This document shows positions 25,644 through 64,000 of a DNA stretch of 64,000 nt, in pieces. The DNA is taken from positions 19,008 through 83,007 of the IMG/VR virus record IMGVR_UViG_3300013383_000027; one strand, written 5' to 3'. The first letter of the stretch is position 1. The number at the start of each line of letters is the position of its first letter. This DNA is from a virus (lineage: Duplodnaviria > Caudoviricetes). The notes under the pieces are model-generated. The model had not been told where the DNA came from, made no database searches, and was given only the letters and a program-made list of their open reading frames with translations. The position numbers and the translations under genes were made by a program.

Positions 25644-25774
25644 GTACCGACGGAACATCGGGAAATTACGCTTGTGGAGTTCAAGACCTCTGTCAACGAT
25701 GCTTGTAGTGTTGTTGATAAGTCTGAACGATGAAACAAGAAGATGCCATGTTTTTAGCATGGCATAGAGTTCAC
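25644..25774 (+). ncRNA. Orphan TnpB omegaRNA-like scaffold plus right end
   Basis: GTACCGACGGAACATCGGGAAATTACGCTTGTGGAG...TGAAC...hairpin ATGCCATG-TTTTTAG-CATGGCAT-AGAGTTCAC; aligns by eye with 45808..45933. Confidence 0.7.
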
Positions 25775-25788
25775 GGTTTCCCAGGACG

Positions 25789-27039
25789 TCAGAATGTCTT
25801 CGTGTTTCTTATGAGTGCCACATTCTGACGGAAAAGGCTCTTGTGCGGCGTGAAGAATGTCCTGACCGATGATGCCACCCAAGAACCGCTCATGCTGTTG
25901 TACTTCTTTGTCGACGGGAGTCCCCCAGATGGCATTCTCTTCTGGAACATGTCGTCCACGTGCATGTCGACATTCACTCCACACCCCGGGAAAAGACCAA
26001 GGTGACCCTGCATGTTGACTATGAGCGACCCGTTGTCGAGAAGGGAAAACATCTGTTTCCTGTACGTGTCGCTGTTGTTGTCCCATGTCGATTCGTTAAT
26101 AGAGTACAGGTTGCTTGCACCCATCTTCGTGATTCTCGACGTCTCGGCTTCGCTCCTGAACAGTCCGGCTATCTCAGACGAATCGATTTCATCGTGGCTG
26201 AACTTGTTCTCGTCAAGATTGTACTTCCAAAATATCCTTCTTGTCGTGTCAAGGGATATCTGCGTCCTCCCCTTCCTGACAACATATGCAATGTTTACCG
26301 GGGTGTCCTCAAGTATGTTCGGCTAGTTGGACACCTGCGACACTTGCACACCGAAAGACTTCTGGAACGACTTCTGCTTCGCCATGTCAAACAAGTGAAT
26401 TTTGTCTGCATACTCGTCATAGACGAAGAATTTCAGAGATTTTTCCCTTGCCGAGTCTCCCCCATAGAACATTCTGCTGTACAGATAGTTCAGCGCGGTC
26501 TCTACGTTCTCATTCCCCGATGTTATGAACTGTATCGAATTTGCGCTTCCGCTGGTCTTGAACGACTCCGCATCGACCGGATATCCAGTATTAGAAAGAA
26601 TCTTTAGCATGATGTCCAGAATCGATTCCGGACCTGTGGAGTAGTTCGAGTACTGCACACTCTTTCTGTAATTCTCCCACGTATTTCCAACCAACTTCAG
26701 CTCGTATGTTATCTTCCCCGGCTCGTTCCTTACGATTCCGATGTTGTCGACGAAGAAGCCAAACTGATGTTGCTCGATTGTCGTGTTCCCATCCTTGTCT
26801 CCATATCTCGCAACCTGCACGGTGCAATTCACGTACTGCTTGTCGAGAAACTTGTCTATTTTCGCGTCATCGTCAAGATACTCGATTGTTCCGGTGGTGT
26901 GAAGCTCGCCCATCCTGTTCAGAGTCTCGAAGCGGAGGAGATTGTTCGAGTCGAGTGTCACGGTGTTCGTCTCGTGATCTGTTAAGACCGCGAAAACACC
27001 ATAGTGCTACCCGTTCTTTGTCGTGAATATCCCGTTCAT
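25789..27039 (-). CDS. Probable baseplate hub (gp27-like position), 416 aa (TAG at codon 11 and at 26323)
   Basis: ATGA overlap with the gp53-like gene; the function is inferred from gene order only. Confidence 0.55.
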
Positions 27040-27374
27040 GACCTGACCCCGTTCATGACAAGAGTGAGTTCCTCACCGTCTATGTACTTGACTGCCGTCG
27101 CGGCTTTCACGATGTCAAACATGTTCTTCGGACCTACACCATTCAACTTCATCAGGAGCCACGCGAGTCTCGTCGTCCCGTAGATGTTGTAGGAAATTGT
27201 CGTCCAGAACATATCCATCTTCGTCATGTAGTTCTTCACGGTTTCGTCAGAGAACGAGAGATAAATCGTGCTGTTCAGGTTATACGAATAATTCCCCTTC
27301 CTGTCCGTGTAGATCTGGAAAAAGTTCTCGAAGTCGTTGTCGTCGACGTTTACGTCTATGTCGTAGATTTTCAT
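27036..27374 (-). CDS. Baseplate wedge protein, T4 gp53-like (LysM-like fold)
   Basis: WTTISYNIYGTTRLAWLLMKLN motif. Confidence 0.8.
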   Translation of the reverse strand: MKIYDIDVNVDDNDFENFFQIYTDRKGNYSYNLNSTIYLSFSDETVKNYMTKMDMFWTTISYNIYGTTRLAWLLMKLNGVGPKNMFDIVKAATAVKYIDGEELTLVMNGVRS

Positions 27375-27397
27375 ATAAAAATACTCATTTTGATGTT

Positions 27398-28801
27398 TTA
27401 AGTGCCATCTGAAAATTTAACATCAACCTTCACATCATCTTTTTCAACCGCTTTCTTTGCAGTCTCCATTAGTTTTTTTTGATTCCACTTAGTATCGGCG
27501 TCTTTTCTACCACTTGCAAAATAACCCCCATCAGTGTTGTTATTCACTTCTTTGTCATCCGGTACGCAAGACATTATGGCGTTCTTGACATTCGTTGTAT
27601 TATACCACACTTCAGTATTGAAAGGACTCAACTAAGTAAGTTGATTCTGTGCGGTAAACCCAAGCATATATGTGTTAAACACGTCCGGAAGCAATGACTT
27701 GAAATCCAAATTCAATTCATATACGTCAGGAATCCTTACCATATCTTCAGGTAACTCCCATGATTCATCGTAGAAACTTGTATCTTTATTTTGGTATTTT
27801 TCGAGTTTTTCAAAAAACTTTTTTGATGGACGTCTTGACACCCCCTTGAACTTACAATCGAACTTTCCGGAACACATCATCAAGCGCTTCCCACCCTCGA
27901 TCTTGATGTCGTATGCGCATGGTGGCATCCTGAACACGCCATACTGAAATGACATGTTCTGTGGTATCAATGTGTTTATGAACAGGAAATTGTTAATGGC
28001 GTGGTCTATGGTATCGTTGAAAAGACTCAGGTTTATCGTGATATTGGATGTCGGATCCTGTGATGGAACCTGCCAGATTGGAGTCAGCGTGAATCTAACG
28101 TTTGAACCCAACGCGCTTAGCAACCTTCCGACTATGGTGCTTTTGTTGTTTGAGAATCCATCGTTTCCGGCAGAATTGAAGCCAAGTTGACCGTCTGAAG
28201 TCAAGTAATCCGTACTGGCACAAGGAAGAACATAGAAGTTCGTTGTCTCGCTTCCTATTGTCTTGAAATACATATTCTCAACGTAATCCAACACCAACTT
28301 TTTTTCAAATGAACCATTTTGACCATTAAAGAGACTGCTCCAAAAACTAGGGGATTTCAAACTTTCAAATGCATATCCTGCTTTGTACGCGGCCGCATTT
28401 ATGATGTTTTCCGAGTTCTGTCCGCTTGCGTCTTCCTTTCCTGTTGACGCACCATCAACAAGATTTTTGAACAACGACACAATCGTATCGAACTTCGTGT
28501 CCTGCTGATATTCGCGAATTACAATGCCGGGTATGTGGTTAAGAATATTATCCATGTCCCCCCCCGTTCCACCAAGTGCTGAAACAAGCTGCTTCACCCC
28601 GATGTCTCTCTTAAACATTTTCCTATGTTCCGGAAATATATTCAGAAGACATCCGTCGTTTTTAGGACGAAACGAAAATGTTGAACACGCACCTCCTTTA
28701 TATTGGAACGGGAGCAAGTGATTCTTTGTATTACGAGTAAAATTTCCGTCACTAAAGATTGTAAACGATTCACTTGATTTGTTTGTATTTTCACTTCCCA
28801 T
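27398..28801 (-). CDS. Putative baseplate/tail-tube initiator protein, 467 aa (TAG at 27632)
   Basis: Two ORFs in frame through TAG; located between the tape-measure-like genes and gp53; function from context only. Confidence 0.5.
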
Positions 28802-28866
28802 TCGACACCTCTCTCAGACACCAAAACTTTACAATATGAAAATTGATTCCACTTTTACGATGAAAA

Positions 28867-28873
28867 TATTTAC
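28867..28873 (-). promoter_or_regulatory. Late-promoter motif GTAAATA
   Basis: Upstream of ATG 28801. Confidence 0.6.
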
Positions 28874-28924
28874 AGAGAACTTGACGAGAAAGATGCCAGG
28901 TCTTCAGCCTGGCATAGAGCTCAC
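28874..28924 (+). mobile_element. 51-bp mini-element
   Basis: TTTAC|AGAGAACTTGACGAGAAAGATGCCAGGTCTTCAGCCTGGCATAGAGCTCAC. Confidence 0.85.
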
Positions 28925-29031
28925 TTGAAGCTTGCAATCTCTGAAGACGATTGCCATTCAGCCTTATGGCAGCACCGCCGAGCCCCCGGTGAAAATCTTA
29001 ACCAGTGGCGAAACAACATCGCCTCTATTTC
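28925..29031 (-). mobile_element. 107-bp four-hairpin element of a second IS200/IS605-like family, ending TTCAA
   Basis: On the minus strand it follows TTTAC; stems GGCGA/TCGCC, TGCCAT/ATGGCA and GCAATC-GTCTTCAGA-GATTGC; ends GCTTCAA. Confidence 0.6.
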
Positions 29032-29041
29032 GTAAATGTCC

Positions 29042-31873
29042 TCAGCCGTGGGTATCTGATTCTGCATCGTCATTTGGCTTCATCTCCTTGTCATCCGGTT
29101 CCTGTTGAACAATCAGACTGGTGTCAATGCCAAGTTCTATGATCTTCTCAATAAGGCTCATGTTCTCCCGTCTCAGCTTGTCGTTCCTGATTCTTGACAC
29201 AAATAGCGGATCGGTTTGATCTTCGTTTTCGTTTTTCTTATCGTCCAAGCCGAGACTCTTTTGTGCCTCGCTGCATTCCGCTGCGATTTCTGCATCCACG
29301 TCCTTGTCTCCGCTGGGTGTCTTCAGAAACTCGAACAGTCCACCCAACACCTTGTCTATGGCAGGAGTGGTGTCGGACTCATCTTCGGGTGCCGACGTGT
29401 CTCTGAGAAGCGCAACGATATTTCTCTGCAATTCCCCATATGATTCACTGCCATTCTTTATGTCAGCATATGACCTTATGTTGTTTTTAATGATAAAATC
29501 GCGGAACAACGACTGAATTACATCCCTGAATTTTTCGACATGTTCATTTGAAACGGGGTTGTTTCCCCTTGCTTTCTTGTATTGTGCTATAAAATCATTT
29601 GTAAGAGACTCTATCGTGTCCTGCTGCCAGTCGGTAATCTGGAATCTGTCGGAAACCGTTTTGTTCATTAAATTCCACAAGTCATCAGAACTTTCCGTTT
29701 GCATATTAATAAAGTCATCTCTTCCAGACAGTATGTAATCTTTCAACGAGACACTTCCACCGGATGATATATATTTTGAAATATCACGCGATGCATAGCT
29801 ACCGGCTCCAATACCGGCATTTCCCGAAAAGTTACGATATATCTTGCATTGAACCTTGTCCGCATATTCCAGCACCAGTCCATTTGCGACGGACCGTATG
29901 TCAGAATATGGTATTAGCCCCTTCTGATATGCATCAACCGCGACGTTTAACGCATTTTGTTTTATTTGTAACAGACACTTATATGCTTTTAATCTCTCCT
30001 GGGGAATATTGACCGCTGTCAACCCATTCTCATTGTAACTTATGTCCCCTCTTTCGGCCTGACTTATCACGGAGTCAACGGTGAAATCAAGAAGCTCTTT
30101 TGTTGTTCCGTCTTTGAATACCTTGAATATCGATTGTCCAACCTCTCTTCCCTGTTCCATTGTAAGAAGCTTCTGTATATTCTCAACTATAGCGGCATGC
30201 CGTTCCCTTTCCTAATCTTCCTCGTCATTGATAGTCATCGTTCCAGAGATGCCATCCAAGCGGTTCTTCAGTTCATCCCTCTACTTCGCAAATTCCGACC
30301 TTTGTTTGTCATCATAGATCTTGTTGTTAGCCTTTTTGTCGAGCTCACCTATTTTGCCTTTCAAGTCCATCCGTATTCCACGGAGGTGTCTTTCCCTCTT
30401 CTGTTTGTACTTGTTCGTGACAGCGGCGATAAACATATTCTTCTGTCCGCGCTCACTCGCTGGCTTTTCCGGAACGCTCCCATATGCTTTTCCTATGTAA
30501 TAACCAGCTATTGAGCCGAGCGCGGTTCCAACACCCATGATAATTGGCTGCAGCGGTCCGAAGAACGAGCCGACAAACCCTCCGACAACACGACCGACCC
30601 ATGCGCCAATCACACCGCCCGCAGAGCCCCCGATTGCACCAGCCAAACTGAAGGAATTCAACTGTATGCCCATCTTGAACATCTTTGTCTTGAACGCCTT
30701 CATGTTAAGGTTTGCGATTGCAAGTTTGCGAAGATATGCCAGAAGAGGACTTTTCTTGAAGTATCCGGCTATATTCATTTTGATTTTGTGAACATCCCTT
30801 TTCTTGTCTTCCCACCATCCCCGGGCTTTATCCTTGTATTCCTTGTATTTTCCAACGATTTTCTGGTATATGAATCCAGCGACATAACCAACAATGAACA
30901 TTCCGGGTGGAGAAAGCAGAAATTTGCCGAACCGTTCAAGAAAACCGATATTAAGCCTTGCCACAAACGCCACAATTTTCTTGCAGACCCTAAATACGCC
31001 GGTTACGATTTTGGTTGCCACCCCGAAAACGGTCTTCGTGGCACCAAGCGCAACCGACACGATGCCCCTTGTCAAGGAAAAGATTCCCTTCAACATTCCC
31101 GAAACGATCTTGCCTATGCCGCCAAGTATGCCACCAATAAATCCAAGAACATTTTTGACCGTAAACAATTTCCTGATTCTGCGTATAATGGAAGACCCCC
31201 CCCATTTCGGTTGTTTTAACAACTCAGAACGCCGTTCCCGAGCCCGATTCACAACCTCAGAAAGCACGTTCTTGCTTCTGGATTGTTTCATTTTCTTGAG
31301 ATTTCGTGTCAACCAATCCGACGCACCATACTGTTTTTTCGTTTGATTGTGTACGTTTTCTGTTGTCTGCCGTCCGGTGGTTTTTACGGAAAAATCGCAA
31401 AAAGCCCTACTCAGCGTCTCCATCCTTTTGGTGTGACCCGTTTTGAGAACATTTATGCAGAAATCCGTTATCTTTTTAGCATATTCTGCGTTTTTTCCTA
31501 TATTGTTTTTGGGAATTTGTGTGTGTACACTTTTTTTAGTCTTTACCCTGTTGTTCAGGACACTTTCTATGTCTTCTTCTAGCCGCTTCTTTGTGTCCTG
31601 TGAAACCCCGAACTCCTTGACAAGAATATCTTGAATCGTGTCTTTCAGGGTCTCCATGAATTTTTCATCACCAAGCTGCTGGAGAATGATGTTGGCGTTT
31701 CCGTCAAGGCACTTTACAAGCTCTATTCTCCTGTTCTTCTCCTCAAGATGATGGTTGAGGTATGCTGTCTTCACAAGCGTATGCATTGCATGGCTGATTT
31801 TCGCATGACGCTCGAAAACCATCTCAAAACTGACTGGTTTAGTCTTGTTCAGCCGCCCGTAATCTGATTTCAT
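29042..31873 (-). CDS. Tape-measure-like protein A, 943 aa (TAG at 30281 and about 30212)
   Basis: Gly/Ile/Val/Lys amphipathic repeats (GFIGGILGGIGKIVSGMLKGIF), a hydrophobic AIGGSAGGVIGAW stretch, and position downstream of the tail chaperone. Confidence 0.7.
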
Positions 31874-34404
31874 TTCGACTCTACCCTCTTTCCGGTTCTC
31901 TGTGATATCATCTCTCGCATTTTCTTGTTCTACTTCTCGAGTTTCCGGCTTTCCTCGTCAAGTTTGGTTATCTCCTCCATTCTTTTCTTTTCGTCTTCTT
32001 TCTTTCGTTCTTCCGAAATCCTTTTGTTTCGCTCCTTCCATTCTGCAATCATCTTGTCAAAAACCCGTTTCCTGTCCGAAAGAGACATTTTCTTCAACCT
32101 ATCGATGTCTTCGGAGTTATATTTTGACAACATCGTGTTTCGAACTATCTCACTTTCGTTATCGTCAAGACCGCCAACCAGCTTTTTGATCTGCTTTTCT
32201 GAAACGACCTATGTTGGAACAATCCTTTCTATGCTGAACGCCTTGTTCGGATCTTTTCCATTCATTCTGCGCCTAATACGACCATTGTGTTTGTTTACTT
32301 GATAACGTGTGGTTTTTTTAGACTGGACATTGCCTACAATATCAGTATATTTCCTTAATTTATCTTGTAGATCATGCCACGGCATAAACCAACGGTCTTT
32401 TCTAAGGTCTTTTGTATCTATCTGCAGTTTTTTGACAACATCGCTGGCAACGACGTTTCCACCATCAAACTTAGCAATCCTGTCAATCATATACTGCAAA
32501 TGCTTCGATGACACAGAAGTCGCAAGCGCGTTTTTCATTATGATCAATCGATTATAACGTTTCGACACGGCATCAGCTAGCATTTTAAGTTGGTCGATTA
32601 CACTACTGTTTTTCGATCTTTTCCTAAAATTGTTGTATTCAGCCCTGTCGAACCCAAAAAGTTCAGAATCATAAACAGTCCTTACAAAATCACCATAAAG
32701 CGCATTCAGATTTGTGTTTTTGTCATCATCGTTTTCAAAAACATCCCTCAAATTGTTTATGTCGTTCACAAGCTGTCCGAGTTCGGATTCCTCCACATTC
32801 ATCTGTGATGTCAATGCATCATATTTCTTTTTCTCTTCTTGGGACAAGCCTTCTATGTTTATTTTATTTGCACTCCCGACACCGCTTGCTATTTCAGATT
32901 TTTCATTTGCAAGCTGAAACTTGTTTTTCCCGAAAACATAACTGAACAATCGCGGAACGACAAATGCGGACGCGAGAATTCCGGCGGCAATTAAAGCAGA
33001 TAACGGACTTCCACAACATTTCAGAACTTTTGATGCTGGACCAAGTATCTGAAGAAGAGGTGGTACAATCTTCAACAGGGCAAGAATGGATGTAACAAGA
33101 ACCGGGTGCTGAAGGACAAACCCAAGCATCGTTCCAACTATGTCAGATGTCTTCGTCGCTATCGGCTTGATGAAATCGACAAAAGGCTTGATGTAATCAA
33201 GATATATCGTATCAAAAACACCCTTTGTCTTTTCGACAACACCATTAAACCAGATTATCTGCGGTTCAAATGTCTTCTTCATCCAACCGACGACCCCACC
33301 TTCATGGTTCTTGTCTATGTTCTTCTTCACCAGACCCCAAACATACCCAAGGGCATAGCCGATTGCAAACATTCCAGCAGGTGTCCTTATCACCGCACAA
33401 AAAGAGTTCTATACAGCCTTCTTCGCAAGCTTGAAAATATCCCCGACAATGTTTACAACTCCACTCAAAAGCTTGTCAATTCTGAAAAATTTCAACGTCG
33501 AAACCAATACACCACCAAGTTTGCGGATTCCCTTTACGATTCCTCCGACAATTCCGGATAGGATCTTGACAATTACACTAACGGATATCGATGCAACTTT
33601 CTTGATGAAACTGCCAATTTTGAAGATATTTTGTATAGAACGAATTCCGCCAATTGACTCCCCCTGTTGTGCATTCTTCTTGAAGATCCCAAGCTGTCTC
33701 TTTGTGAGTTTCGGGGTCATGCCCGCCGCACGCTGCTGTGCATTCTTCTTGAAGATCCCAAGCTGTCTCTTTCGCATATTCTCAAGAATGTTCCTCTGTC
33801 CAGATGCAACAATTGAACTTCTGGCTCTTTTTCCCCCACTTTTCTTGGCGTAATCTTTGCAGTTCTTTCTGAACAGTTCTACGATTTCAGATGTATGTTT
33901 TTCCTATGTCCTTTCTATTTCTTTTCTGAACCTTGTCGGAAAATTCTTCTGATTTTCCAGCTATGACATTGCCTCGTCAAGACTGGTATCAGGGGAATCC
34001 TTCGTGTCTATAAGATTTGTGGTTTTGGAGGACTCTTTTTTTAGCTTCCGTATGGAAGACTTTATGCTCTTAAATACCTCATCGGCAACATTGTCCTGCA
34101 ACCTCTTCGACTTCGCGATTTCCCGAACCGCCAACTATAGATCAACAGTCTTTGCGAAATTGTCGACATATGGTTTCAGGAGCTCCTAAAACCTATCCGT
34201 TATGTAGTGTACAAGTTTTTCGTTCCTCCCACTCTCGGTATCCTCCTCGCACTACCTGTACTTTTGCAATATGTCGGAAAGTGCGGAGATTATGTCACGC
34301 TGTTCCTGTTCCCAGAAACCCTTAAGAACGGTTTTCTCGGCACGGGGAAGCGTGTTGACTTTCTTGTGCGAGTTTGGCAGAATGGAACGCGAAACTTTTT
34401 TCAT
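31870..34404 (-). CDS. Tape-measure-like protein B, 844 aa (8 TAG)
   Basis: Frame open except for TAG from ATG 34404 (ATGA overlap) to TGA 31870 (ATGA overlap); amphipathic repeats; shares a motif with protein A. Confidence 0.7.
33668..33772. repeat. Two exact 36-bp direct repeats, period 69 (in-frame KRQLGIFKKNAQ duplication) inside tape-measure B
   Basis: TGTGCATTCTTCTTGAAGATCCCAAGCTGTCTCTTT at 33668 and 33737. Confidence 0.9.
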
Positions 34405-34667
34405 CTCGGAGACGTGTTCTTGTACCTCATGTAATTTATAATGTCACCGATGGCGTAAAGCGACTTCACCATGTCGTTCCCATCATTCTTTCGCATGTTC
34501 TGCTCCTCCTCGTTGTCGGTGTTGAGCTTCTGGATGAACGACTGAAGATCCAACATTGTCATGTACTTCTCATCTCCATGTATCATAACCCTGTATCTCC
34601 TGAAGATTCCCATTTCGGCTTCGGCGACATATTGATACATCTTCCGATCAATTGCGCCGAGAATCAA
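34401..34667 (-). CDS. Tail assembly chaperone C-terminal part (lambda T-like), probably made as a -1 frameshift fusion
   Basis: Begins in the -1 frame at the T-TTT-TTT-TGA end of the upstream ORF and directly precedes the tape measure. Confidence 0.6.
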   Translation of the reverse strand: MILGAIDRKMYQYVAEAEMGIFRRYRVMIHGDEKYMTMLDLQSFIQKLNTDNEEEQNMRKNDGNDMVKSLYAIGDIINYMRYKNTSPR

Positions 34668-35574: not shown

Positions 35575-35617
35575 AAAAAATTTGACGAAAAAGATGCCAT
35601 GTTTTCAGTCTGACACA
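35575..35617 (+). mobile_element. Degenerate mini-element
   Basis: TTTAC|AAAAAATTTGACGAAAAAGATGCCATGTTTTCAGTCTGACACATA. Confidence 0.65.
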
Positions 35618-35691
35618 TAAATCGTCAATACCATTTTTGGTGAACTCTATGCATAGAATTCACAGTTCTGAAGAGTGTTCACACGAAAAAA

Positions 35692-37184: not shown

Positions 37185-37235
37185 AAAAAATTTGACAAGG
37201 AAGATGCCATGTCTTTAGCATGGCATAGAGTTCAC
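37185..37235 (+). mobile_element. 51-bp mini-element
   Basis: TTTAC|AAAAAATTTGACAAGGAAG-ATGCCATG-TCTTTAG-CATGGCAT-AGAGTTCAC. Confidence 0.85.
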
Positions 37236-38058: not shown

Positions 38059-39789
38059 ATGACATACAAAGAAATATCGCTCTTTCTCGAAAACTTGAAT
38101 ATCGGAAAATCGAAACGTGAAATTTTCCTGAAAAACCACTGTCCAGATATTTTAAATGAAATTTTAAAAGCAACGAAGTTTCTCGATGAGACGAACAAGG
38201 ACGACCGTGAGATAACTTTTGCTGAACGCGTTTTCTGCATCCTGCATAATATTCACGAACGTCCAAAATGCATACAATGTGGTTCTTATGTGATGTTTGC
38301 TAAAGATCGTGGTTGCTATCGTGAATTTTGTTCTCAAACATGTTCGAGAAAAAGCGAACAGACAAAGACGAAACGAAAAACCACAACATTGGAACGCTAT
38401 GGAAGTGAAACATTCCACAACATCGAAAAAGCAAAGAAAACAAGATTTGAACACAACAAAGGCAAATGGCATTCAGATGATTTCTCTAAAAAAGTGAAAG
38501 AGACGAAATTTGGGAAATATGGAGATGAAAACTGGAGCAATCCTGAAAAAACATCAAAGACAAATATGGGAAAATATGGCGTAGTCTATCCATTCCAATC
38601 AAAAGAAATAAGAAGCCGTGCCGTTGAGTCTTTTATGAAAAAACACAACGGAATATCTTGTGTGTTCAAACTTCCGTCTGTTATGAAAAAAACACACAAA
38701 GGAATAAGAAAAAGATCATACGGTTTCATTTTGGAAGATAAGAACATAACTCCGAATTTCACAGAAGAAGAGTACGTGAACGGTTCTTCCGAAACCGAAT
38801 TTGAATTCATATGCAGCAAATGTGGTTCGAAATTCAAATCGACATGGGAGCGTGGATTTTGCAAAAGATGTCCTACATGTTATCCTGAACCGTTTGGTAT
38901 GTCGAATGCAGAATGTGAACTTTATGAATTCCTGAAAAACAACTGTGGTTCTAAATGGTCTGTTTTTCATCGCACAGATATAAACAAAAACATTTTAAAT
39001 AAACGTGAAATAGATATTGTCCTGAAAAGTGTTTCAGGACAATATCTATGTATAGAATATGATGGACTTTTCTATCATTCGGAAGAAAATGGAAAACACA
39101 CAAACTATCACTTGTCCAAAACAGAAGAGTGTGAAAAATCTGGCATTCAGTTAATCCATATTTTCGAGAATGAATGGATTTCAAAACAAAAAATAGTCGA
39201 ATCGAGATTATTAAACCTACTCGGAATATACGAAAACACGGTGTATGCAAGAAAGTGTTCAATAAAAACAGTAGATAAAGATACAAAAGACAGATTTCTT
39301 GATCAAAATCACATCCAGGGAAAATGTTCATCTAGTTTTAACTGTGGTTTATATTTTGAAAATGATTTAATTTCATTAATGACTTTTGGAAAATCTCGCT
39401 TTTCAAAAAAATACGAATGGGAATTGATAAGATTCTGCAACAAAACGGGTTATCATGTTCCTGGTTCGGCCGGAAAACTGCTAAAATTCTTTGAAAAGAC
39501 AATGAAGCCAAAATCAATTGTCTCTTATGCGGACAGAAGATGGTCTGTTGGAAAACTATACTATTCACTTGGATTCAATCTAGACCACACATCAAACCCA
39601 AACTACTGGTATTTCAAGCCAAATAAACCATATGTAATCTACAACCGAATTGGGTTTCAGAAGCACAAATTACCGAAACTGCTGAAAGAATACGACCCAA
39701 AACTTTCCGAAACAAAAAACATGGAAAACAACGGATACATGAGACTGTGGGATTGTGGAAATCTGGTATTTGTGAAGACTTGTACTTAA
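38059..39789 (+). CDS. Free-standing Hef-like homing endonuclease (basic repeats, Vsr/PD-(D/E)XK-like domain, GNAT-like C-terminus), 576 aa
   Basis: REIDI..IEYDGLFYHS..KTEECEKSGIQLIHIFENEW; IVSYADRRWS; WDCGNLVF. AT-rich and oriented opposite to the tail genes. Confidence 0.8.
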   Translation: MTYKEISLFLENLNIGKSKREIFLKNHCPDILNEILKATKFLDETNKDDREITFAERVFCILHNIHERPKCIQCGSYVMFAKDRGCYREFCSQTCSRKSEQTKTKRKTTTLERYGSETFHNIEKAKKTRFEHNKGKWHSDDFSKKVKETKFGKYGDENWSNPEKTSKTNMGKYGVVYPFQSKEIRSRAVESFMKKHNGISCVFKLPSVMKKTHKGIRKRSYGFILEDKNITPNFTEEEYVNGSSETEFEFICSKCGSKFKSTWERGFCKRCPTCYPEPFGMSNAECELYEFLKNNCGSKWSVFHRTDINKNILNKREIDIVLKSVSGQYLCIEYDGLFYHSEENGKHTNYHLSKTEECEKSGIQLIHIFENEWISKQKIVESRLLNLLGIYENTVYARKCSIKTVDKDTKDRFLDQNHIQGKCSSSFNCGLYFENDLISLMTFGKSRFSKKYEWELIRFCNKTGYHVPGSAGKLLKFFEKTMKPKSIVSYADRRWSVGKLYYSLGFNLDHTSNPNYWYFKPNKPYVIYNRIGFQKHKLPKLLKEYDPKLSETKNMENNGYMRLWDCGNLVFVKTCT

Positions 39790-39840
39790 GTGAACTCTAT
39801 GCCAGGCTAAAGACCTGGCATCTTTCTCGTCAAGTTTTCT
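39790..39840 (-). mobile_element. 51-bp mini-element abutting the stop codon of the homing endonuclease
   Basis: Reverse complement matches the 22800 copy; TTTAC at 39841-39845 on the minus strand. Confidence 0.85.
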
Positions 39841-39842
39841 GT

Positions 39843-39876
39843 AAAAAAGAAGACCCGGTCGGGTCTTCTTTTTTTT
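39843..39876. terminator. Bidirectional terminator between the endonuclease and sheath 1
   Basis: AAAAAAGAAGACCC-GGTC-GGGTCTTCTTTTTTTT. Confidence 0.8.
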
Positions 39877-42634: not shown

Positions 42635-45580
42635 TCACAAGTTCCCAATCGTCACTTCCTCTACAGAAGCTCCTTGTGACGTACAGATGAAATTAAGGAC
42701 GATGAACTCCCCCGATTTCACAGGCTTGACCCCAAACGCGCAATGAAGCTCGTTGTTTTCAATCGTGTTCGCGTTGTTGTTCCTGTCGTCACAGACAATC
42801 CTGTAATCCTGTATTCCAAAACGGCTGACGGCATCGTCAAATATTGGGGACATCGTGTCAACAAACCTCTGCATCATGTAGTCTGTTATACCCTCGTAGA
42901 TAAAGAACTTGGACAGATACCTGACCCTGCTCTCGAGACCGAGGAACAAGCGTCTCACATTAACCCTATCAAAAGCCGTCTTGTCGGACTGGAACGTCTT
43001 CTGACCCTCAATGACTATCCCGTTTATCGGGTAGTTCATGGCATAGTTCCACGACGAGTTGTAGATAGCCCACGACTGCCTGTTTGTCGGGTTGAACGCG
43101 GTGTCGACAACGTCATTCGGGAGTACGCCACGATTGAGCCCGGCCGGGGCGTTCCAGTAGTTCGAGTATGCATCGGTGTAGAGGTACACGCCAGCAGCCT
43201 TGATTGATGGAGGACACCAGAAGAGGTCTCCGGTATGCCCGTCGACACACCTGAACCAGTTGCAATACCCAGCGCCATACGATGTATTGATTACACCGGA
43301 TATGTACTTCAGCTTCGGATGGATCTGGTTCTCGATTGTGTTCTGTGGGCTTGTGTCGCGCACAAGCTTCTCGTCCCCCTGCAGGCAGAACGGTCTCGGG
43401 GCGTCTGCGATGAACATGCAGTCCTTGCGGACGTTCTTGCAGAAATCGTCATACTTTTTGAGAATCATCTCCCATTCTACGGTATGGGTTTTCGAACTCA
43501 GCTTATGCTTGTACGATATCTTCGACAGGTTGTCATAATATCCTATCTCCCGCTAATAGACCGATTTTATGAACTGACCTATATTCGACACGCCCGCATC
43601 GACGACAAGATCAACCTCAGAGGTGTTGATATCCCTATTGTGGTCGAATATATAGTCTATTGCCCTGTTTAGAGAATTCTTTACGGATATGAGCTTATCG
43701 CTGTCCGACAAGTAAAGACCAAGCGAAACGGCATCGTTCTGTGATGCAATGAAAATTGATGCCTTGTCGGCGTCGTAGAGCTTGATGTTACCGTTCTCGG
43801 AGAACCTCACGTTGCTGAAGAACCTTATGTACCTCGACCCCTAGTTGACCATCGTGTCAAGGAAAATGGACGCTTTGGTAATCGGGTCGACAGCTTTGCG
43901 GTTCAACGAGCCGACGAACGATTCAACTGCGGAAAATGATATCTTATTGTTATTCGATCTATCGACGAACATCTGATAGACGACAACACCGACTCTCTTT
44001 AGCAGGTCCGTATCGTAATGACCATCCCTTGTGGTTATCTCCGGGAAGCTGGAGGACGCCACTAGCGAAAGCGTCACCTGCCCATCCTGTACGTCATTCT
44101 CCCCTCCGATGTCTTGTGAAAATCCTGTTATCGTCAATATGTCATTGTTAAGACCAACAAGATCGTTTGAGACATCCGCGTATTTCTCGACACCGTTCTC
44201 ATCGACATATACATACCTGTTTGTCGACTTTACGTTGCTGATTGTGCCAACGGGAGAATAGTCCTTGTTGCCCTGCCTTGAACGACCGAGCTGATTTTGT
44301 ACGTACAGTGCGTTTGCGGCGGTCGTGAACACCGGGAGAATTCCCGCATATTCGAGATTCTTATTCTTGAACGTGTCAATCTGATATCTCTGCCTGGATA
44401 TGTCCACAACGACAATCCGCCCGGTCTATACGGCAAGCCTGTTCGTCTGCAACTTGTCTAGTGTCTCCATCTCAAGCATACCAGACATCTTCCCCTCCTT
44501 CCGTCCAATTGACCTTATGCCAAGGTATGTCTATATGGACCCATCTGCCACCTTCAACTCGGTGAACTTTGTGTAGAGAAGTTCGTTTTCAAGGAACGAG
44601 CATATAACCTTGATGATCTTTTCTATGCAAACCTTGAACTACTTAGCCGCTTTTCTCGTTGCAACCAACAATACCTGTTTCTTGCTTGTTTCAAGAATTC
44701 CCTGACTTTGGGTTTTAAGCACTCTTTCTATCGAATAGTCCTCATCATACACGATTCCGGAAAGGAGATCCCTCAAGTCCTCAAGCTATGTCACGTAGTA
44801 GCTCAAACCCTTACTCCTCGCGAAACGCTCGACCCACTTGTCTGCACTAGAGAGTTCGGTTGAAAGTGTCTTCTGGAGTTCGTCAAATCCAACAATGCTT
44901 CCGTCGTCAAGACCGTATTTGGCACTGAGACCGAGAACCTCTTTGGGATTCTGCAAAACACTCAGGAGAACATCGTACTAGTTGTTCTAAAAGTAACCCC
45001 TGAACAGTGCATCGAAAGTCTCATAAAGCTCATATGGAACACTTGACTGATCCCTAACGAACTCGGCAAATTCGAGGGGTACAGACGTCTACACTGACAA
45101 GATATCGAAAATTTCGTGACACTCCAATTCGTCGACAATCGGATGCACAAGGAATTCGATAACATTCTGGTTGCACCACCACGATGGGATTTTGCCGGTA
45201 TCGACACTTACTTGAACCGCAATGTCGTATGGGTCGCTGAGGTTCGTCAATTTTGCATCGACCTCATACGTCGTGAACGCGAACTTGTTCATCGAGGCGT
45301 TGTCGTACGGGAGCTTCGCGCACCTCAGGTTTCCGCCGCGTTCCATTACCTCGTGTGCGGCGTTGTAGAAATACCGTTCAGCCTCGTTGGTCGGATATCC
45401 GTAAACGGACGCGAACTGCGCCATTGAACCTATTTGTCTCGTAATGTAGTCTTGTCCCATGTCGGCGAAACCCATCAGGAAGACCGTTGTGTCCACTATG
45501 CTGTTATCCTGTTCGTTGCCGTACGAGGAACGGTCTATCTCGTTCACTTCGAGACCTGGAGCCTAAATTGTTCTACTCAT
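42635..45580 (-). CDS. Tail sheath protein 2, gp18-like paralog, 981 aa (10 TAG)
   Basis: Starts MSRTI(TAG)APGLEVNEIDRS; C-terminal WNAPAGLNRG, DRVNVRRLF, KPVKSGEFIVLNF; frame open except for TAG. Confidence 0.9.
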
Positions 45581-45620: not shown

Positions 45621-45665
45621 AAGAGAAATGACGAGAAAGATGTCGGGTCTTCAGCTGTGAAATCG
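45621..45665 (+). mobile_element. Degenerate mini-element / left end of the decayed tnpB element
   Basis: TTTAC|AAGAGAAATGACGAGAAAGATGTCGGGTCTTCAGCTG. Confidence 0.6.
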
Positions 45666-45679
45666 CATAGTTTTTAGAT

Positions 45680-45933
45680 GATCTCATTTGCAGGAACTGT
45701 AGGCAATAGCTAAGAAAGAGAAATCTCAGTGGAATGGCAAGTATCTTCAGTGATTGTGGATATAAATTTGATAGGGACACTCATTCAGCAAAAAACACAC
45801 AATTTCGTACCGGTGGAACATCGAGAAATCACGTTTGTGTAATTCAAGATATCTAGAGATGACACTTATGGTGTTGACAAGTCTGGACACTGAAACAAGA
45901 CACACCTTGTCTTCAGCACGGTATAGAGTTCAC
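45680..45933 (+). pseudogene. tnpB: Degenerate tnpB 3' end (Zn ribbon) with omegaRNA/right end ending GAGTTCAC
   Basis: Translates as ICRNCRQ*LRKRNLS..DCGYKFDRDTHSAKN (CG..DRD.NAA.N motif), followed by GTACCGGTGGAACATCGAGAAATCACGTTTGTG and the terminal hairpin. Confidence 0.75.
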
Positions 45934-46048
45934 AAAAACCCTCATTTAATGTGTGAAAAAAAAATATTTTTTCTTACGATAATAGACAGAAAACAAACAT
46001 TTATAATGAAAAATGTCAAATATCGGAAAATGCTAATGAAAATGACTA

Positions 46049-46077
46049 TTGACTTTTTGTTAAGAAAATGTTATTAT
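46049..46077 (+). promoter_or_regulatory. Sigma70-like promoter with no obvious ORF downstream (faces the tnpB remnant)
   Basis: TTGACT-N17-TATTAT. Confidence 0.45.
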
Positions 46078-46238
46078 TTAAATACTTCTTTGATTTGATT
46101 AATAAATCTTCATTACAACTAAATCAATATCAATTCAAAATTACAACTTTCTCCTGTTTCACATGGCTTGACGAAGTCAAGACATCCGTAAAAATATTCA
46201 CTGACTGAATGTATTTAAAATATAAAAACTTTAGTCAA

Positions 46239-46769
46239 TTAAATAAAACTGTATTTAAACAATAGTTTTTGACTATAGAATTTACTGAAAACTGCGTTAT
46301 GGACATAATCCTGAAGCAGAAATCGATATTTCACTTTCGATTTTTTGATTTCTTGAAATGCTGATTTCCAGTTATCAAATCCAGATAGTGTTTGCTTCCA
46401 TTGCTCATCTATTCTTTCATCTTTGATATTTGGATAGAACCAACTTTTCTCAAACTTTCTGTATCCTCTTCTTGCTATTTCTATTGATGAAGCAACCATG
46501 TCTGGAGTATTTTTGTTTCCATACATGATATTTCCAATAAAACTTGAATAGCAAGGATTGACTTCAACTAAACTGAAATTGCAAAGTAAGGAAAGTGATT
46601 TCAGTTTATTGACAAACAAATTTCTATTCCATACATTATTGCATAGTCTATTGAAATACTTTCCTTGTTTTTTATCGGAACTTTTAATTGACAAATCTTC
46701 AATAACTACCTTGTCACATTTCCAATAATCAACAAGATTGCAAATATCATGAAAATACAAATACCACAA
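46239..46769 (-). pseudogene. tnpB: 5'-truncated TnpB-related (IS200/IS605 accessory, Cas12f-like) RuvC protein, C-terminal 176 aa
   Basis: VVIEDL (RuvC-II), EVNPCYSSFIGN and PDMVASSIEIARRG (RuvC-III). No RuvC-I region; a TGA lies 14 codons upstream of the TTG. Confidence 0.7.
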
Positions 46770-46823: not shown

Positions 46824-46873
46824 ACAAAAATGACAAGAAAGATGCCTTGTCTTCAGCATAGCATAGAGTTCAC
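46824..46873 (+). mobile_element. Mini-element preceded by TTCAC instead of TTTAC
   Basis: GTTCAC|ACAAAAATGACAAGAAAGATGCCTTGTCTTCAGCATAGCATAGAGTTCAC. Confidence 0.75.
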
Positions 46874-51776: not shown

Positions 51777-51827
51777 AATAAAATTAACGAGAAAGATGCC
51801 ATGTCTTCAGCATGGCATAGAGTTCAC
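51777..51827 (+). mobile_element. 51-bp mini-element
   Basis: TTTAC|AATAAAATTAACGAGAAAG-ATGCCATG-TCTTCAG-CATGGCAT-AGAGTTCAC. Confidence 0.85.
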
Positions 51828-55081: not shown

Positions 55082-55132
55082 AGAAAATTTGACGAGAAAG
55101 ATGCCAGGCTGAAGACCTGGCATAGAATTCAC
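55082..55132 (+). mobile_element. 51-bp mini-element with an inverted hairpin loop
   Basis: TTTAC|AGAAAATTTGACGAGAAAG-ATGCCAGG-CTGAAGA-CCTGGCAT-AGAATTCAC. Confidence 0.85.
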
Positions 55133-56857: not shown

Positions 56858-56892
56858 GAAACCACCAGGCGAATCTTGGTGGTTTCTTCTTT
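56858..56892 (+). terminator. Terminator after groEL
   Basis: GAAACCACCA...TGGTGGTTTC followed by a T-rich tract. Confidence 0.7.
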
Positions 56893-56911
56893 ATGTGGTT
56901 TAAAATGCCAC

Positions 56912-56939
56912 TTGACAATTAATGTGAATTTGCTATACT
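56912..56939 (+). promoter_or_regulatory. Sigma70-like promoter of the gp47-gp46 operon
   Basis: TTGACA-N16-TATACT. Confidence 0.7.
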
Positions 56940-56981
56940 ACTTAACATGGAAAATCCAAACGGTCTTAGCTGGGAACAGAC

Positions 56982-58202: not shown

Positions 58203-58204
58203 AA

Positions 58205-60724: not shown

Positions 60725-60730
60725 AAATAC

Positions 60731-60880
60731 AAAACTTACGACCGCGACAGGAACGCGGCAGTAAACATTCTTCGGGAAGGGGCATCTTCCCGTTGGCGAG
60801 ACGCCGTAAGACCGCCGGAGACGGCGGCTGGCGTCACCTGAACCCAGAATCTCGTGGCTTCAGCCGTGAGAGTGTGTCAA
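60731..60880 (+). mobile_element. Orphan tnpB 3' end plus right-end RNA (ISDra2-like architecture) ending TCAA
   Basis: Encodes YDRDRNAAVNILREG, then GTAAGACC..., a hairpin CTCGTGG-CTTCAG-CCGTGAG and a terminal GTGTCAA. Confidence 0.8.
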
Positions 60881-60956
60881 GAAAACACATAAACAGATTT
60901 TGCCAAAAAACTACATTTTGGACACAATAAATTTTTTGAAAACCATAAAGGAACAA

Positions 60957-61337
60957 ATGATGAACAGTGCGAACATGTCACAAAAAAACGAAGATGCAAT
61001 TGCAGAGAAAGAGGAAATCAAACATCCGAATCGTTATAACAAGAATGGTATTGAGGTGTGGGAAGTCGAGAAGGCTTTTTCCGCTACTCCAGAAAAGAAC
61101 ATTCCACACTTCGTCGAGCACCTTAGGTTTGGTGCCGTTGAGTACCTTCTCCGTTGTTGGGACAAGAACGGAGTCGAGGACATCAAGAAAGCCATGAATC
61201 TTTGTGGAAAGATGCTTAAGGAACTTGAGTGTGTGAAGGTTGTGCAGGATGAGTTCGTGAATTCCTCGGATATCAATGTCATGTTGACAATTGAAGAAGA
61301 CGAAGAACCGACGGTTGCTATCGTCGGGCAAATCTAA
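60957..61337 (+). CDS. DUF3310/SaV-like protein, 126 aa
   Basis: IKHPNRY..GIEVWE..GAVEYLLRC.DKNGVEDIKKA pattern. Confidence 0.75.
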   Translation: MMNSANMSQKNEDAIAEKEEIKHPNRYNKNGIEVWEVEKAFSATPEKNIPHFVEHLRFGAVEYLLRCWDKNGVEDIKKAMNLCGKMLKELECVKVVQDEFVNSSDINVMLTIEEDEEPTVAIVGQI

Positions 61338-61347
61338 AGGTCTTAAA

Positions 61348-62109
61348 ATGATTTTGCTTGACGTAGTTTTCGTTTCAAAGAACGATTCCTTCTCGTTTAC
61401 CGAAGAGGACGAGAAGAACTTTTTTCTCCTAAACCCAACCTTTTCAAAGTACATAACTTTTACGAGAATTCCGAACAATACGGACAACTTGACAAAGGTG
61501 TACAATCGCACACTCGACGAAAAGACAAACGGAAAACAACCCGACTTCGTTGCGTTCGTCCATTCCGACTCGACGATGGACTTTATCCACATTTTCAACA
61601 AGCTTGATGAATGCAAGGAAAAATATGATGTCATCGGACTGTGCGGAACACAGAGGGTAGTGACATCACAGACACCCTTGAACTGGTTCACCTCTAGCAT
61701 ACCATGCCCCGACAGGAGGGTCGGTTGTGTAAAGCACGGCGACGGGAGAGAATCATACTTCAGCAGGACCCGCCCTGGGCTTGAGGATGCCCCCGTTGGA
61801 ATGATAGACGGGGTGTTCATTGCGTTTGGCAGAAGGGCTCTTGAAAGGGGGATTAGATTTGACGAGCAGTTCGCGTTCGATCAGTACGACAGTGACATAT
61901 CATTCCAGGCTCTCCTTAAATATAATCTTAGACTTGGCGTGATAGTCGAGAAGAGCCTTGTTCACCAAAGCGTCGGAAAGTCGATACTGACAAGGGATTT
62001 TCTTGTTCATGAGCTTGATTTCAGAAAGAAGTGGAATCTTGACATTCCAAAGGGTACACTGCTCGAGAGGCTTGTGCAGAAAGTCGATGGCAACGAATTG
62101 TTGACCTGA
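61348..62109 (+). CDS. GT-A (family 2-like) glycosyltransferase, 253 aa
   Basis: FVHSD, IDGVFIA and FDEQFAFDQYDSDI motifs. Confidence 0.7.
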   Translation: MILLDVVFVSKNDSFSFTEEDEKNFFLLNPTFSKYITFTRIPNNTDNLTKVYNRTLDEKTNGKQPDFVAFVHSDSTMDFIHIFNKLDECKEKYDVIGLCGTQRVVTSQTPLNWFTSSIPCPDRRVGCVKHGDGRESYFSRTRPGLEDAPVGMIDGVFIAFGRRALERGIRFDEQFAFDQYDSDISFQALLKYNLRLGVIVEKSLVHQSVGKSILTRDFLVHELDFRKKWNLDIPKGTLLERLVQKVDGNELLT

Positions 62110-62568
62110 TCAAATCAACTGTTTTTCAGTTATCACCCTGAAGACCGCGCCGTTCAGCCGTGCGGTCTTTTTCGCCTGTTCCCATTTTGACTTGTTTTTG
62201 ATCCACGTGATGACGTTTTTTGTCTTGCTTTCATTGACGGGTCTCTTGACTTCGCTCGAATGCTTCACTTCTACCCATATTTTCTTCGTCCCACCCTTTC
62301 CATCAGAAACCCATATCACGAAATCAATGAAGTAGTTTCTCAGTTTCGGTGGATTAGACGACCTGTCCATGTACTTTATGTGCACGGTTTCGTACTGCCA
62401 GCATACAATGTCCTTGTTCCTGTCGCAGTAGAGCATGAATCTGTGTTCCAGTTTGCTCTTGAACATTGGGGGATATTCACCACGATACTTTTCCCTGTGA
62501 ATCGGGAAGTACTTCCCCGTTTCCGCATTGGAGTATTTCCCTCTGTGCTGTCCGTTAACCCTAATCAT
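62110..62568 (-). CDS. Head completion nuclease, T4 gp4-like (TnsA-like fold)
   Basis: GKY.P..REKYRG, FKSKLE..FM.YCD.N..I..W, YFIDF, VEVK and NKSKW motifs. Confidence 0.85.
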   Translation of the reverse strand: MIRVNGQHRGKYSNAETGKYFPIHREKYRGEYPPMFKSKLEHRFMLYCDRNKDIVCWQYETVHIKYMDRSSNPPKLRNYFIDFVIWVSDGKGGTKKIWVEVKHSSEVKRPVNESKTKNVITWIKNKSKWEQAKKTARLNGAVFRVITEKQLI

Positions 62569-63520
62569 CTGGAAGTTCGTCGAAATTCCATTCTAGCCTG
62601 TCAACGTAATCGCTGTCGTCGAAACCCTGTGCACACAAGGAATCCACCCAATCCATGTGTCTGCTGTAGCTTGAAAGAAGTGGTACCGGGTAAAATCCGA
62701 CATACATTCTGTTGATTAGCGGAATGAAACCGTCCTGTTTCGGATCTTCAATTGGAACCTCAACCGAAAGTTCTGTCGAGATTTCTGTCGTCACCTGTTC
62801 CGTCACGGTTATCGAAAGGTCCTTGTCCAGAAAGTCCTCGATATGCCTCTTGTCGTCGTCTGTAAGTTTGCGGATATACGATGACAGTCCCGTGTACTTT
62901 CTTACGTCAACGATTGTCGATATTTCGGTTGTCCTCTATTTTGCCTTCTGGTTTCCGCAGAACATGTATGTCTTGAACGTGAAGTTGCAGGTAGCCTGTA
63001 TGAGATCGTCTGTCGATGGGTCAATCTCGTCGCCGTGATCCTCGGTTATGCCATCCTCCATTATGACCTGGTTTGTAAAGAACAGCCCTTCGAACTTCGG
63101 ATGTTGACACCTGACGAACAAATCCTTGTTGAAGAACGGTATGAAATTTGAGAGAGCCTTGTCAATCTGTTCCTGGTATTTTGATATAATTGTGACTTCG
63201 TACGATATGTCAATGGGGACCGGAGTGAATATATTGTAATTCAGCCTTCTCGATGATGTTGCATATTTCACCTCGTTGTTGACGTTCGCAAGCCTGTCAT
63301 TGTTCTTTGTAACCCCCGTTCTCTGTATCACGATGAGCGGAAGATTGTAAATTGCGTTCTTGTCCGGGTTTTCAAGGCTCTTGAATATCCTCGACCTGTT
63401 CCCGAGGACACAGGAGAACCTTGTCCTTTTGTTTCCCTACTGTATGGCTATGTTGCTGAAAAGACGCTTGAACTGCGCATTTGCAAGAGATAGCTCCTGA
63501 TTCCAAGACTGAATTTCCAT
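62555..63520 (-). CDS. Tail sheath stabiliser/completion protein, T4 gp15-like, 321 aa (3 TAG)
   Basis: FKRLFSNIAI, LPLIVIQRTG and PVPIDISYEVTI..EQI..FIPFFN motifs; true stop TAA at 62555. Confidence 0.8.
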
Positions 63521-63539
63521 TACAGATAACTTTTAGGCA

Positions 63540-63546
63540 TATTTAC
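63540..63546 (-). promoter_or_regulatory. Late-promoter motif GTAAATA
   Basis: Upstream of the gp15-like ATG 63520. Confidence 0.65.
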
Positions 63547-63598
63547 AAGAGAAACGACGAGAAAAAATGCTACGTCTTCGGTATGGCATAGGGTTCAC
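63547..63598 (+). mobile_element. Degenerate mini-element (52 bp)
   Basis: TTTAC|AAGAGAAACGACGAGAAAAAATGCTACGTCTTCGGTATGGCATAGGGTTCAC. Confidence 0.7.
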
Positions 63599-63666
63599 GG
63601 GTGATTTGACAAGAAACATGCAAATTATTCAGGCGAAACAGCCGCCACAAAAGCAAGAAAATCCAA

Positions 63667-63717
63667 GTGAACTCTATGCCAGGCTAAAGATATGGCATCT
63701 ATCTTGCGAATTTTTGT
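63667..63717 (-). mobile_element. Mini-element, minus orientation
   Basis: Plus strand reads GTGAACTCTATGCCAGGCTAAAGATATGGCATCTATCTTG. Confidence 0.7.
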
Positions 63718-63864
63718 GTATTGCAAAAATTCGCAAGGAAAAACTTAGAAGTTCATGTTAATTAAATTCTTTAATTATTTATATTTATATAATACTAAAA
63801 TTTTTATTTTAAATAAACTTTTTAATAATATTTAAAGTTAATAAATATTAAAGTAAATACAATC

Positions 63865-64000
63865 ATGACAACGCTTAAATTGAAATTAGAAAATGAAATA
63901 GATATTCTGAAAGAACAGAAAACTTTCAGCAATATTGTTCGTCTTTCATTTAATCGTTTTCAGGATGGTTTAAAAGAAAAAGAAGTTAGAGAATTTCTGA
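63865..64000 (+). CDS. N-terminus of a probable TnpB-related protein (same family as 46239..46769), truncated by the window end
   Basis: MTTLKLKL..FSNIVRLSFNRFQDGLKEKEVR resembles N-termini I recall for this family; AT-rich leader. Only 45 codons are visible. Confidence 0.5.
   Translation, partial: MTTLKLKLENEIDILKEQKTFSNIVRLSFNRFQDGLKEKEVREFL

Follow-up and report, generated by a model that had tools for sequence, protein, structure and literature searches.

Does a phage genome strewn with orphan transposon guide-RNA modules make use of them, or has it simply accumulated them? The question is raised by a 64,000-nucleotide stretch of a tailed-phage genome (hereafter the window), which corresponds to bases 19008-83007 of the 83-kb single-contig virus record IMGVR_UViG_3300013383_000027 (G000), a record estimated to be about 32% complete. 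Scattered through it are modules that resemble the right ends and omegaRNAs of TnpB-encoding transposons and that have lost most or all of tnpB; an original prediction, made from the letters of the DNA, proposed that they form a dispersed guide-RNA system acting in trans. Our analysis showed that the modules are decayed and miniaturised copies of IS605-type insertion sequences (IS), inserted beside a promoter-like motif of the phage. The window very probably holds the debris of four TnpB-related element families (A-D) residing in a jumbo gut phage, and selfish residence, not service to the phage as a guide-RNA system, is the best reading of these elements.

The window carries the gene set of a jumbo myovirus, including an 888-aa tail sheath, a GroEL-like chaperonin, SbcCD, a helicase and an HNH homing endonuclease. 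Presence/absence tests were made against the sole close outgroup, a 184.6-kb IMG/VR record (G001) that is syntenic, in the opposite orientation, with the window contig and 75-80% identical to it at the nucleotide level. Screening of the entire window with Rfam at gathering thresholds matched no family, no tRNAs were found in the window, and deposited phages yielded no megablast match to 20 kb of it.

Family A elements are phage-borne members of the IS200/IS605 group

The modules can be interpreted with the help of a full-length family A element in G001, which occupies the same TATTTAC site as, and is orthologous to, a stub in the window (35575-35663, plus strand) consisting of a left end and a right-end tip. 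The G001 element comprises, in order, a left-end hairpin, a Y1 tnpA gene, a tnpB gene encoding 430 aa, an omegaRNA region that overlaps tnpB at its 3' end, and a right-end hairpin that leads into AGAGTTCAC. Its tnpA is a divergent Y1 gene, broken by a TGA and a frame change, and its TnpB bears the OrfB_IS605 (PF01385, 1e-10) and TNB (PF07282, 7e-9) domains and matches the ISFba1 and ISDra2 TnpB structures by sequence. A more diverged copy (G004) has the right end GTAGTTCAT; its tnpA and tnpB are intact when TAG is read as Q, and the tnpA, read in this way, covers positions 3-121 of the 121-position PF01797 model with an E value of 1e-24. TnpBs 56-70% identical to that of G001, with the same right-end tail, were found on six further phage or metagenome-assembled-genome (MAG) contigs. 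We also tried to assign a host through bacterial-genome matches to family A TnpB; the matches were short MAG contigs, probably phage DNA, and no host was assigned.

Family A shares with the IS605 group (IS608 of H. pylori, ISDra2, ISGst) a Y1 HUH TnpA, present in the full-length relatives and not in the window, and a TnpB with OrfB_IS605 and TNB domains and the RuvC triad, of which the window has only C-terminal remnants. It also shares subterminal hairpins on the left and the right, duplication-free insertion 3' of a target of 4-5 nt, a predicted structured omegaRNA that starts within the 3' part of tnpB and stops at the right end, and a target-adjacent motif (TAM) equal to the insertion target. 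The geometry is close to that of IS608: on the left, 19 nt separate the cut from the hairpin foot; on the right, foot and cut are 9 nt apart. Unlike the IS605 group, family A lives in jumbo phages, its target is embedded in a promoter-like 7-8-mer, and its genes in some relatives carry in-frame TAG codons that can be read only if TAG is sense.

The biology of IS200/IS605 elements and their TnpB-driven retention are established (PMC8612924, PMC10055086). Members of this group, ISCaje1-4, were described in 2010 in the T4-like Campylobacter phages CP220 and CPt10 (PMC2853527). Like family A, they reside in large virulent myoviruses, and they are mostly tnpB-only and lie at differing sites in related phages; no analysis of a target motif, an omegaRNA or mini-elements was reported there, and no sequence relationship with family A was found, though no search aimed at one was made.

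Insertions lie directly beside a promoter-like motif and are absent from a related phage

Family A copies in the window begin directly after TATTTAC and finish with the right-end tail, apart from three short copies (at 39790 on the minus strand, 46824, and 63667 on the minus strand) that follow TTTAC, GTTCAC and AATAC, respectively. TATTTAC is the complement of the promoter-like GTAAATA. There are 20 such sites on the plus strand of the contig (25552-25558 is an example), 12 of them occupied by family A elements, and at 19 of the 20 a minus-strand ATG lies within 6-65 nt and opens an ORF of at least 72 aa, both sheath genes being included. Similarly, ATATTTAC occurs 14 times on the plus strand and never on the other, when about four occurrences would be expected for both strands together, and G001 shows the mirror image of this strand bias. 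We infer that GTAAATA may be a late promoter.

G001 is empty at all eight comparable occupied sites (17660, 22793, 25552, 37178, 45614, 51770, 55075 and 63540), where TATTTAC is joined directly to the flank. Such bare junctions represent the scarless, duplication-free, one-sided insertion typical of IS200/IS605. Since insertion takes place just upstream of GTAAATA, it leaves the motif and the downstream gene intact, which explains why it is tolerated. The original prediction had named TTTAC as a TAM that would recognise late-promoter sites of empty alleles; TTTAC is indeed the element target and a putative TAM, situated inside the promoter-like motif, and empty alleles of the predicted form exist in the related phage.

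An omegaRNA scaffold survives in the window without its gene

An alignment of five full-length phage copies and three relics gave an omegaRNA consensus of 33 pairs, 19 of which show compensatory changes. Full-length copies keep 30-32 of the pairs, and a relic in G001 keeps 27, with four further pairs lost in a gap. The covariance model finds only two full scaffolds in the window. The better of these lies within a family A deletion derivative at 25559-25774 (plus strand), which sits between TATTTAC and GGTTT and consists of a left end with its hairpin, a complete scaffold (25640-25774) and a right end, without tnpA or tnpB. All 33 pairs are intact, the model scores it at 144.6 bits, and the site is empty in G001. 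The other is a relic at 45621-45933 (plus strand), made up of a partial left end, a C-terminal tnpB remnant, an omegaRNA (45803-45933) and a right end; it keeps 26 of the 33 pairs, seven being broken, scores 107.9 bits, and again has an empty counterpart in G001. Its decayed tnpB remnant, at about 45683-45800, retains a zinc ribbon and a DRD motif and contains one TAG, in agreement with the decayed ribbon that had been noticed there. Over 137 nt the two copies (25644-25774 and 45808-45933) are homologous at 75% identity. Taken with two further relics of other families, described below, homology, covariance-model scores and TnpB C-termini bear out the earlier view that all four modules are TnpB right-end relics.

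The same prediction saw in both copies an internal pentamer able to pair with the terminal GTTCA. This pairing is possible at five of five positions in each window copy, as claimed; across the family, the covarying partner of the pentamer is instead an internal GAGUU(C/U), and one locus (L038) compensates there while breaking the pairing with the invariant terminal GUUCA.

With its left and right ends and no ORF, 25559-25774 qualifies as a palindrome-associated transposable element (PATE). Like the PATEs of Meers et al. 2023 (PMC10055086), it is non-coding, has IS ends and encodes an omegaRNA that would need TnpB in trans; for such omegaRNA-encoding PATEs a use in trans has already been proposed in bacteria by those authors. 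The stub at 35575-35663 ends differently: in place of the normal hairpin, the right-end tail is repeated as an inverted copy (GTGAACTCTATG / CATAGAATTCAC).

Ten 51-nt units fuse both ends of the element on a single hairpin

The smallest family A derivatives are ten units of 50-52 nt (minis), in each of which a left-end leader of about 19 nt, one hairpin and a 9-nt right-end tail are fused. As a short repeat, the unit gave four matches at up to three mismatches, against none in 100 shuffles, and 14 matches in the window at a looser threshold, the ends of longer relics being counted. On the plus strand, the 51-nt minis at 22800-22850, 37185-37235, 51777-51827 and 55082-55132 and a diverged 52-nt mini at 63547-63598 all have empty sites in G001, and the one at 17667-17717 is likewise absent from G001 at the orthologous TATTTAC. 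A further plus-strand mini, at 28874-28924, lies tail-to-tail with a family D relic, and a 50-nt mini at 46824-46873, behind GTTCAC, has a partly broken hairpin. The two remaining minis are on the minus strand: one at 39790-39840, behind TTTAC and beside a low-GC HNH endonuclease gene, and one at 63667-63717, behind AATAC, which represents a second subtype also found in another phage (L032). An exact hairpin pattern searched in a viral contig collection gave no match.

The minis fall into genome-specific, near-identical subfamilies. Three copies in G001 share the same mismatched stem and have a leader like that of G001's own left end, and in G000 the mini at 22800, together with its target pentamer, is 100% identical over 56 nt to 39790-39845 on the minus strand. 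These subfamilies and the identical pair argue that the mini has been copied as a unit. At the same time, a site shared between the two genomes (G000:1607 and G001:129215) carries a mini in G000 and a 330-nt relic with an internal tnpB fragment in G001, which shows that decay in situ also occurs. The mini hairpins are paired in 87.5% of alignment cells, with one covarying pair and 14 unpaired cells; so far as the alignment tells, selection on them is weak.

Because the minis keep only the last hairpin and 9 nt of a scaffold of about 135 nt, they cannot be guides by themselves, and we found nothing able to pair with them as a scaffold in trans. With one hairpin serving as both ends and no omegaRNA scaffold, they differ from PATEs and fit that class only loosely. 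They are also reminiscent of repetitive extragenic palindromic (REP) elements with their REP-associated tyrosine transposases (RAYTs; TnpA-REP) in being dispersed intergenic single hairpins related to IS200/IS605 ends; unlike the REP/RAYT system, no RAYT gene was seen, and the minis carry both IS605 cleavage-site contexts and show presence/absence at a defined target. A possible sigma-70 promoter within the mini (TTGACG and TAGAGT, found by eye) was considered and rejected because the two motifs are 28 nt apart.

Several features accompany individual minis. In the copy at 55082-55132 the 7-nt loop is inverted relative to all other copies, with the stem and flanks kept, which suggests a hairpin flip by template switching. 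The minis at 37185-37235 and 39790-39840 flank a 576-aa HNH/homing-endonuclease gene of 35% GC (38059-39789, plus strand), at whose place G001 has different DNA of 2.3 kb. Between the two opposed minis near the end of the window lies a 68-nt stretch (63599-63666) without a counterpart in G001.

A zinc-ribbon-less TnpB-like family and two further families of relics

The TnpB-related ORFs of the window belong to a different family, C. One is a 5'-truncated copy at 46216-46769 (minus strand), comprising the C-terminal 170 aa and a 23-nt right end whose boundary was defined from six loci; its ORF (46239-46769) matches residues 263-432 of the 432-aa protein P0002 at 89% identity. The other is an element with its left end at 63758 (63758-64000, plus strand) and GTAAATA 5 nt before the ATG at 63865, whose ORF runs off the end of the contig; the 45 residues encoded there from 63865 onwards match the P0002 N-terminus at 100% identity. 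Both ORFs had been flagged as TnpB-related, rightly in view of these identities and of a Cas12f/TnpB fold. The family counts more than 1000 cluster representatives; apart from isolated matches in single members, Pfam gives nothing significant. Among 34 family C sequences D202 and E280 are invariant and D346 is present in at least 90%. An AlphaFold2 (AF2) model of the protein (pLDDT, the predicted local distance difference test, 88) has Cas12f (E 1e-10), TnpB, Fanzor2 and Cas12k as its best Foldseek matches, and its predicted WED-REC-RuvC fold with a D-E-D triad places it in the TnpB/Cas12f superfamily. The zinc ribbon is lacking: P0002 and 32 others gave no match to PF07282, one of the 34 gave a marginal one (E 0.0048), and the interval from the RuvC-II to the RuvC-III motif has no CxxC pair.

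The compact, IS607-like family C element begins 107 nt ahead of its ATG and extends 23 nt past the stop codon. Homology among loci stops at the latter point, so any family C scaffold must lie inside the ORF. In one phage (L032) a serine recombinase (PF00239 at 6e-19, plus a helix-turn-helix (HTH) domain, with four TAGs read as Q) lies upstream, and it is only in this copy that a serine-recombinase TnpA stands beside tnpB as in IS607; the window copies lack it. Family C shares its fold with IS607-family TnpB, Cas12f and Fanzor2 (and with ISDra2 TnpB, ISFba1 TnpB and Cas12k), as well as the RuvC D-E-D residues, and is unlike IS607-family TnpB, Cas12f and Fanzor2 in having no CxxC zinc ribbon or Pfam match, in its right end 23 nt past the stop and in the GTAAATA that precedes the gene. 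The family C left end also forms a perfect 76-bp inverted repeat at the contig ends (63758-63833 and G000:1-76), where the assembly broke inside a multi-copy family C element. At the contig start, this left end follows a decayed TnpB C-terminus (NADINGAIGILRKK, G000 78-317, minus strand). An AT-rich stretch of 282 nt (45934-46215) that separates the family A and family C right ends has no counterpart in G001.

Families B and D are represented by truncated single relics. The family B relic (60731-60880, plus strand) has no left end; what remains is the last 17 or so TnpB codons, with a C-terminus of the DRDRNAAVNILREG type, followed by a GC-rich, omegaRNA-like tail that ends in TCAA. It is 80% identical over 143 nt to G001 137296-137437, the RNA region behind a truncated TnpB, and a stem is compensated between the two; the intergenic stretch that holds it is only about 21 nt long in G001, as read by eye. 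The 5'-truncated family D relic (28925-29040, minus strand) has about 12 terminal TnpB codons (LRNRGDVVSPLV) and an RNA-like tail ending in TTCAA. It shares 94% identity with the C-terminal end of a gene in L032 that bears PF07282 and also matches the relic at the contig start, and the composite in which it lies tail-to-tail with a mini is present in another phage, L045, as well. There (L045 240-360) a family C right end is followed by the family D relic and then an inverted family A mini, and in L032 a heavily deleted family A relic (7386-7434 and 7600-7700) stands behind the family C gene; nested or abutting insertions thus recur at such intergenic spots in other phages.

Transposon genes share the altered code of their phages

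The phage probably reads TAG as a sense codon, and code 15 is probably used for its late genes. Many minus-strand ORFs are merged in this reading. Long minus-strand ORFs at 42638-45547, 9853-15735, 17728-19869 and 31870-34443 appear only when TAG is sense, with 10, 12, 14 and 8 in-frame TAGs, respectively; the 970-aa ORF with 10 TAGs is a second tail-sheath paralog, its sheath domain at the far end. The same codon occurs in transposon genes of relatives, which are intact only if TAG is read as Q: a family A tnpB (L039, 2501-3775) has five in-frame TAGs at conserved positions, the G004 copy (locus L029) has 11 in its tnpB (63-1376, minus strand) and several in its tnpA (1426-1875, plus strand), five of them inside the Y1 domain match, and the L032 recombinase, at 5303-5917, carries its four TAGs in frame. 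These in-frame TAGs indicate that the elements are long-term residents of recoded phages.

Among the neighbouring genes, a 152-aa ORF (62110-62568, minus strand) matches the N-terminal domain of a Tn7 TnsA-like endonuclease (PF08722, 4e-14) and also a PHROG labelled 'head closure', which conflicts with that annotation.

How the elements spread, and whether they serve the phage

We propose that a family A element would insert as single-stranded DNA just 3' of TTTAC, by the known peel-and-paste mechanism, and that copies would afterwards lose their genes through internal deletion, giving rise to the omegaRNA-only element and to the 51-nt form, in which a single hairpin would bear the left-end leader and the right-end tail. 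This form most likely spread as a unit, in the manner of PATEs or of miniature inverted-repeat transposable elements (MITEs), and gene-less copies may have been mobilised by TnpA supplied in trans. TnpB-guided cutting of empty TTTAC-plus-flank alleles in co-infecting relatives could then lead to homing. Several points weigh against this account. Neither tnpA nor an intact family A tnpB was found in the 83-kb contig, about 32% of the genome. A single-hairpin substrate differs from the canonical two-hairpin substrate of TnpA, and repeated deletion between similar left and right hairpins could produce an identical 51-nt product at each site. Finally, the promoter role of GTAAATA is argued from position and strand bias only.

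The deletion argument can be taken further, to the view that minis never moved as minis and that each one goes back to a full-length element that inserted independently and was then cut down by recombination between the similar hairpins at its two ends. The pair of alleles at G000:1607 and G001:129215, a mini and a longer relic at the same site, speaks for such a course, as do relics with differing deletion end-points (25559-25774, 35575-35663 and 45621-45933). On the other hand, near-identical minis share idiosyncratic substitutions (the mismatched stem found three times in G001, and the 100% identical pair in G000), and ten uniform minis stand against no full-length copy in 83 kb, so that we regard separate insertion as an unlikely, though serious, contender. 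Far less probable, to the point of being scarcely credible, is the idea that the 51-nt hairpins are native regulatory cassettes of the phage, each a terminator or processing hairpin fused to a promoter, which IS elements merely resemble or target. The units are intergenic and directly upstream of GTAAATA, often just past the stop codon of the preceding gene, and a pyrimidine-rich run follows the hairpin in the gene sense, all of which would suit a cassette. They are, however, absent without a scar from seven comparable mini-bearing sites in G001, where the promoter-like motif is intact, in the full-length IS their 5' part recurs as the left end and their 3' part as the right end, and one copy is inverted, one has its loop flipped and many have broken stems.

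The original prediction went further in proposing that scattered orphan omegaRNAs, and perhaps the 51-nt units, are kept as trans guides for one phage TnpB, for homing, phage-phage competition or late-gene repression. Some of the evidence is favourable: 25640-25774 keeps 33 of 33 pairs though tnpB has been lost, a relative has empty TTTAC alleles, and the idea is accepted for bacterial PATEs (PMC10055086). We also aligned contigs from four DNA runs of one study that contain the phage to the full IS of G001. Short pieces cover the middle and 3' part of the family A tnpB at about 82% identity, at a depth near that of the phage in three of the four runs; the N-terminal third is uncovered, so these contigs neither show nor exclude an intact gene. 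A second sequence variant of the left-end-plus-omegaRNA form is also present, its depth comparable to that of the phage in three runs, while the fourth did not show it; this variant hints that the 216-nt element has itself been copied.

Against these points, no intact cognate TnpB was found in the contig or, given the uncovered N-terminal third, in the sample contigs. The one possibly whole TnpB-like gene of the window, cut by the contig end, belongs to family C and has its own ends, whereas the orphan RNAs belong to families A, B and D; coming from a different family, it is unlikely to load them. Nothing points to a nuclease-dead, TldR-like form, the catalytic motifs being kept in families A and C. 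When the 16-nt flanks after every right end were searched against G000, all of G001 and 20 loci (22 sequences), each matched only itself, apart from scattered 13-14/16 matches without a TAM, and no flank had a second TAM-adjacent match; the flank of the family D relic matches family A right ends because the relic abuts one. Guides mismatch the G001 empty sites, which differ from the window flanks at many positions. Seven pairs are broken in the second family A relic, and the B and D relics are truncated single copies. As for the 51-nt copies, which had been pictured as repeat-plus-guide units, their presence/absence and genome-specific subfamilies mark them as mini transposons; the scaffold is lost and structural conservation is weak. 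We therefore consider a trans-guide system improbable. Its most elaborate form strikes us as more doubtful still: that TAG-recoded jumbo phages host their own IS605 family, with the late-promoter core as TAM and some genes readable in the phage code only, whose gene-less derivatives serve a phage TnpB that cuts the empty promoter alleles of relatives. If service in trans were true, it would amount to RNA-guided homing or competition between phages, and to an intermediate between duplication of a right end and a CRISPR-like repeat-plus-guide unit.

Significance

Read as selfish residents, the family A elements offer a clean natural example of RNA-guided transposons inside large phages instead of bacteria, with defined parts: a promoter-like target, verified empty alleles, stages of decay graded as far as the 51-nt single-hairpin unit, and an omegaRNA still structurally perfect after loss of the nuclease gene. 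In the literature searched, four things appear to be new: a target in a phage that is a promoter core, a unit with both ends fused on one hairpin, an orphan omegaRNA that is intact in a virus, and transposon genes that are recoded. Transposase and nuclease genes that carry TAG show mobile elements adapting to the altered code of a virus. For annotation there is a warning, in that conserved hairpin 'cassettes' before late genes are insertions and not native regulatory signals. The single-hairpin units raise the question of whether a Y1 transposase moves a one-hairpin substrate, and should the two thirds of the genome that are missing encode the cognate TnpB, TnpB-driven homing in viruses becomes directly testable by co-infection.

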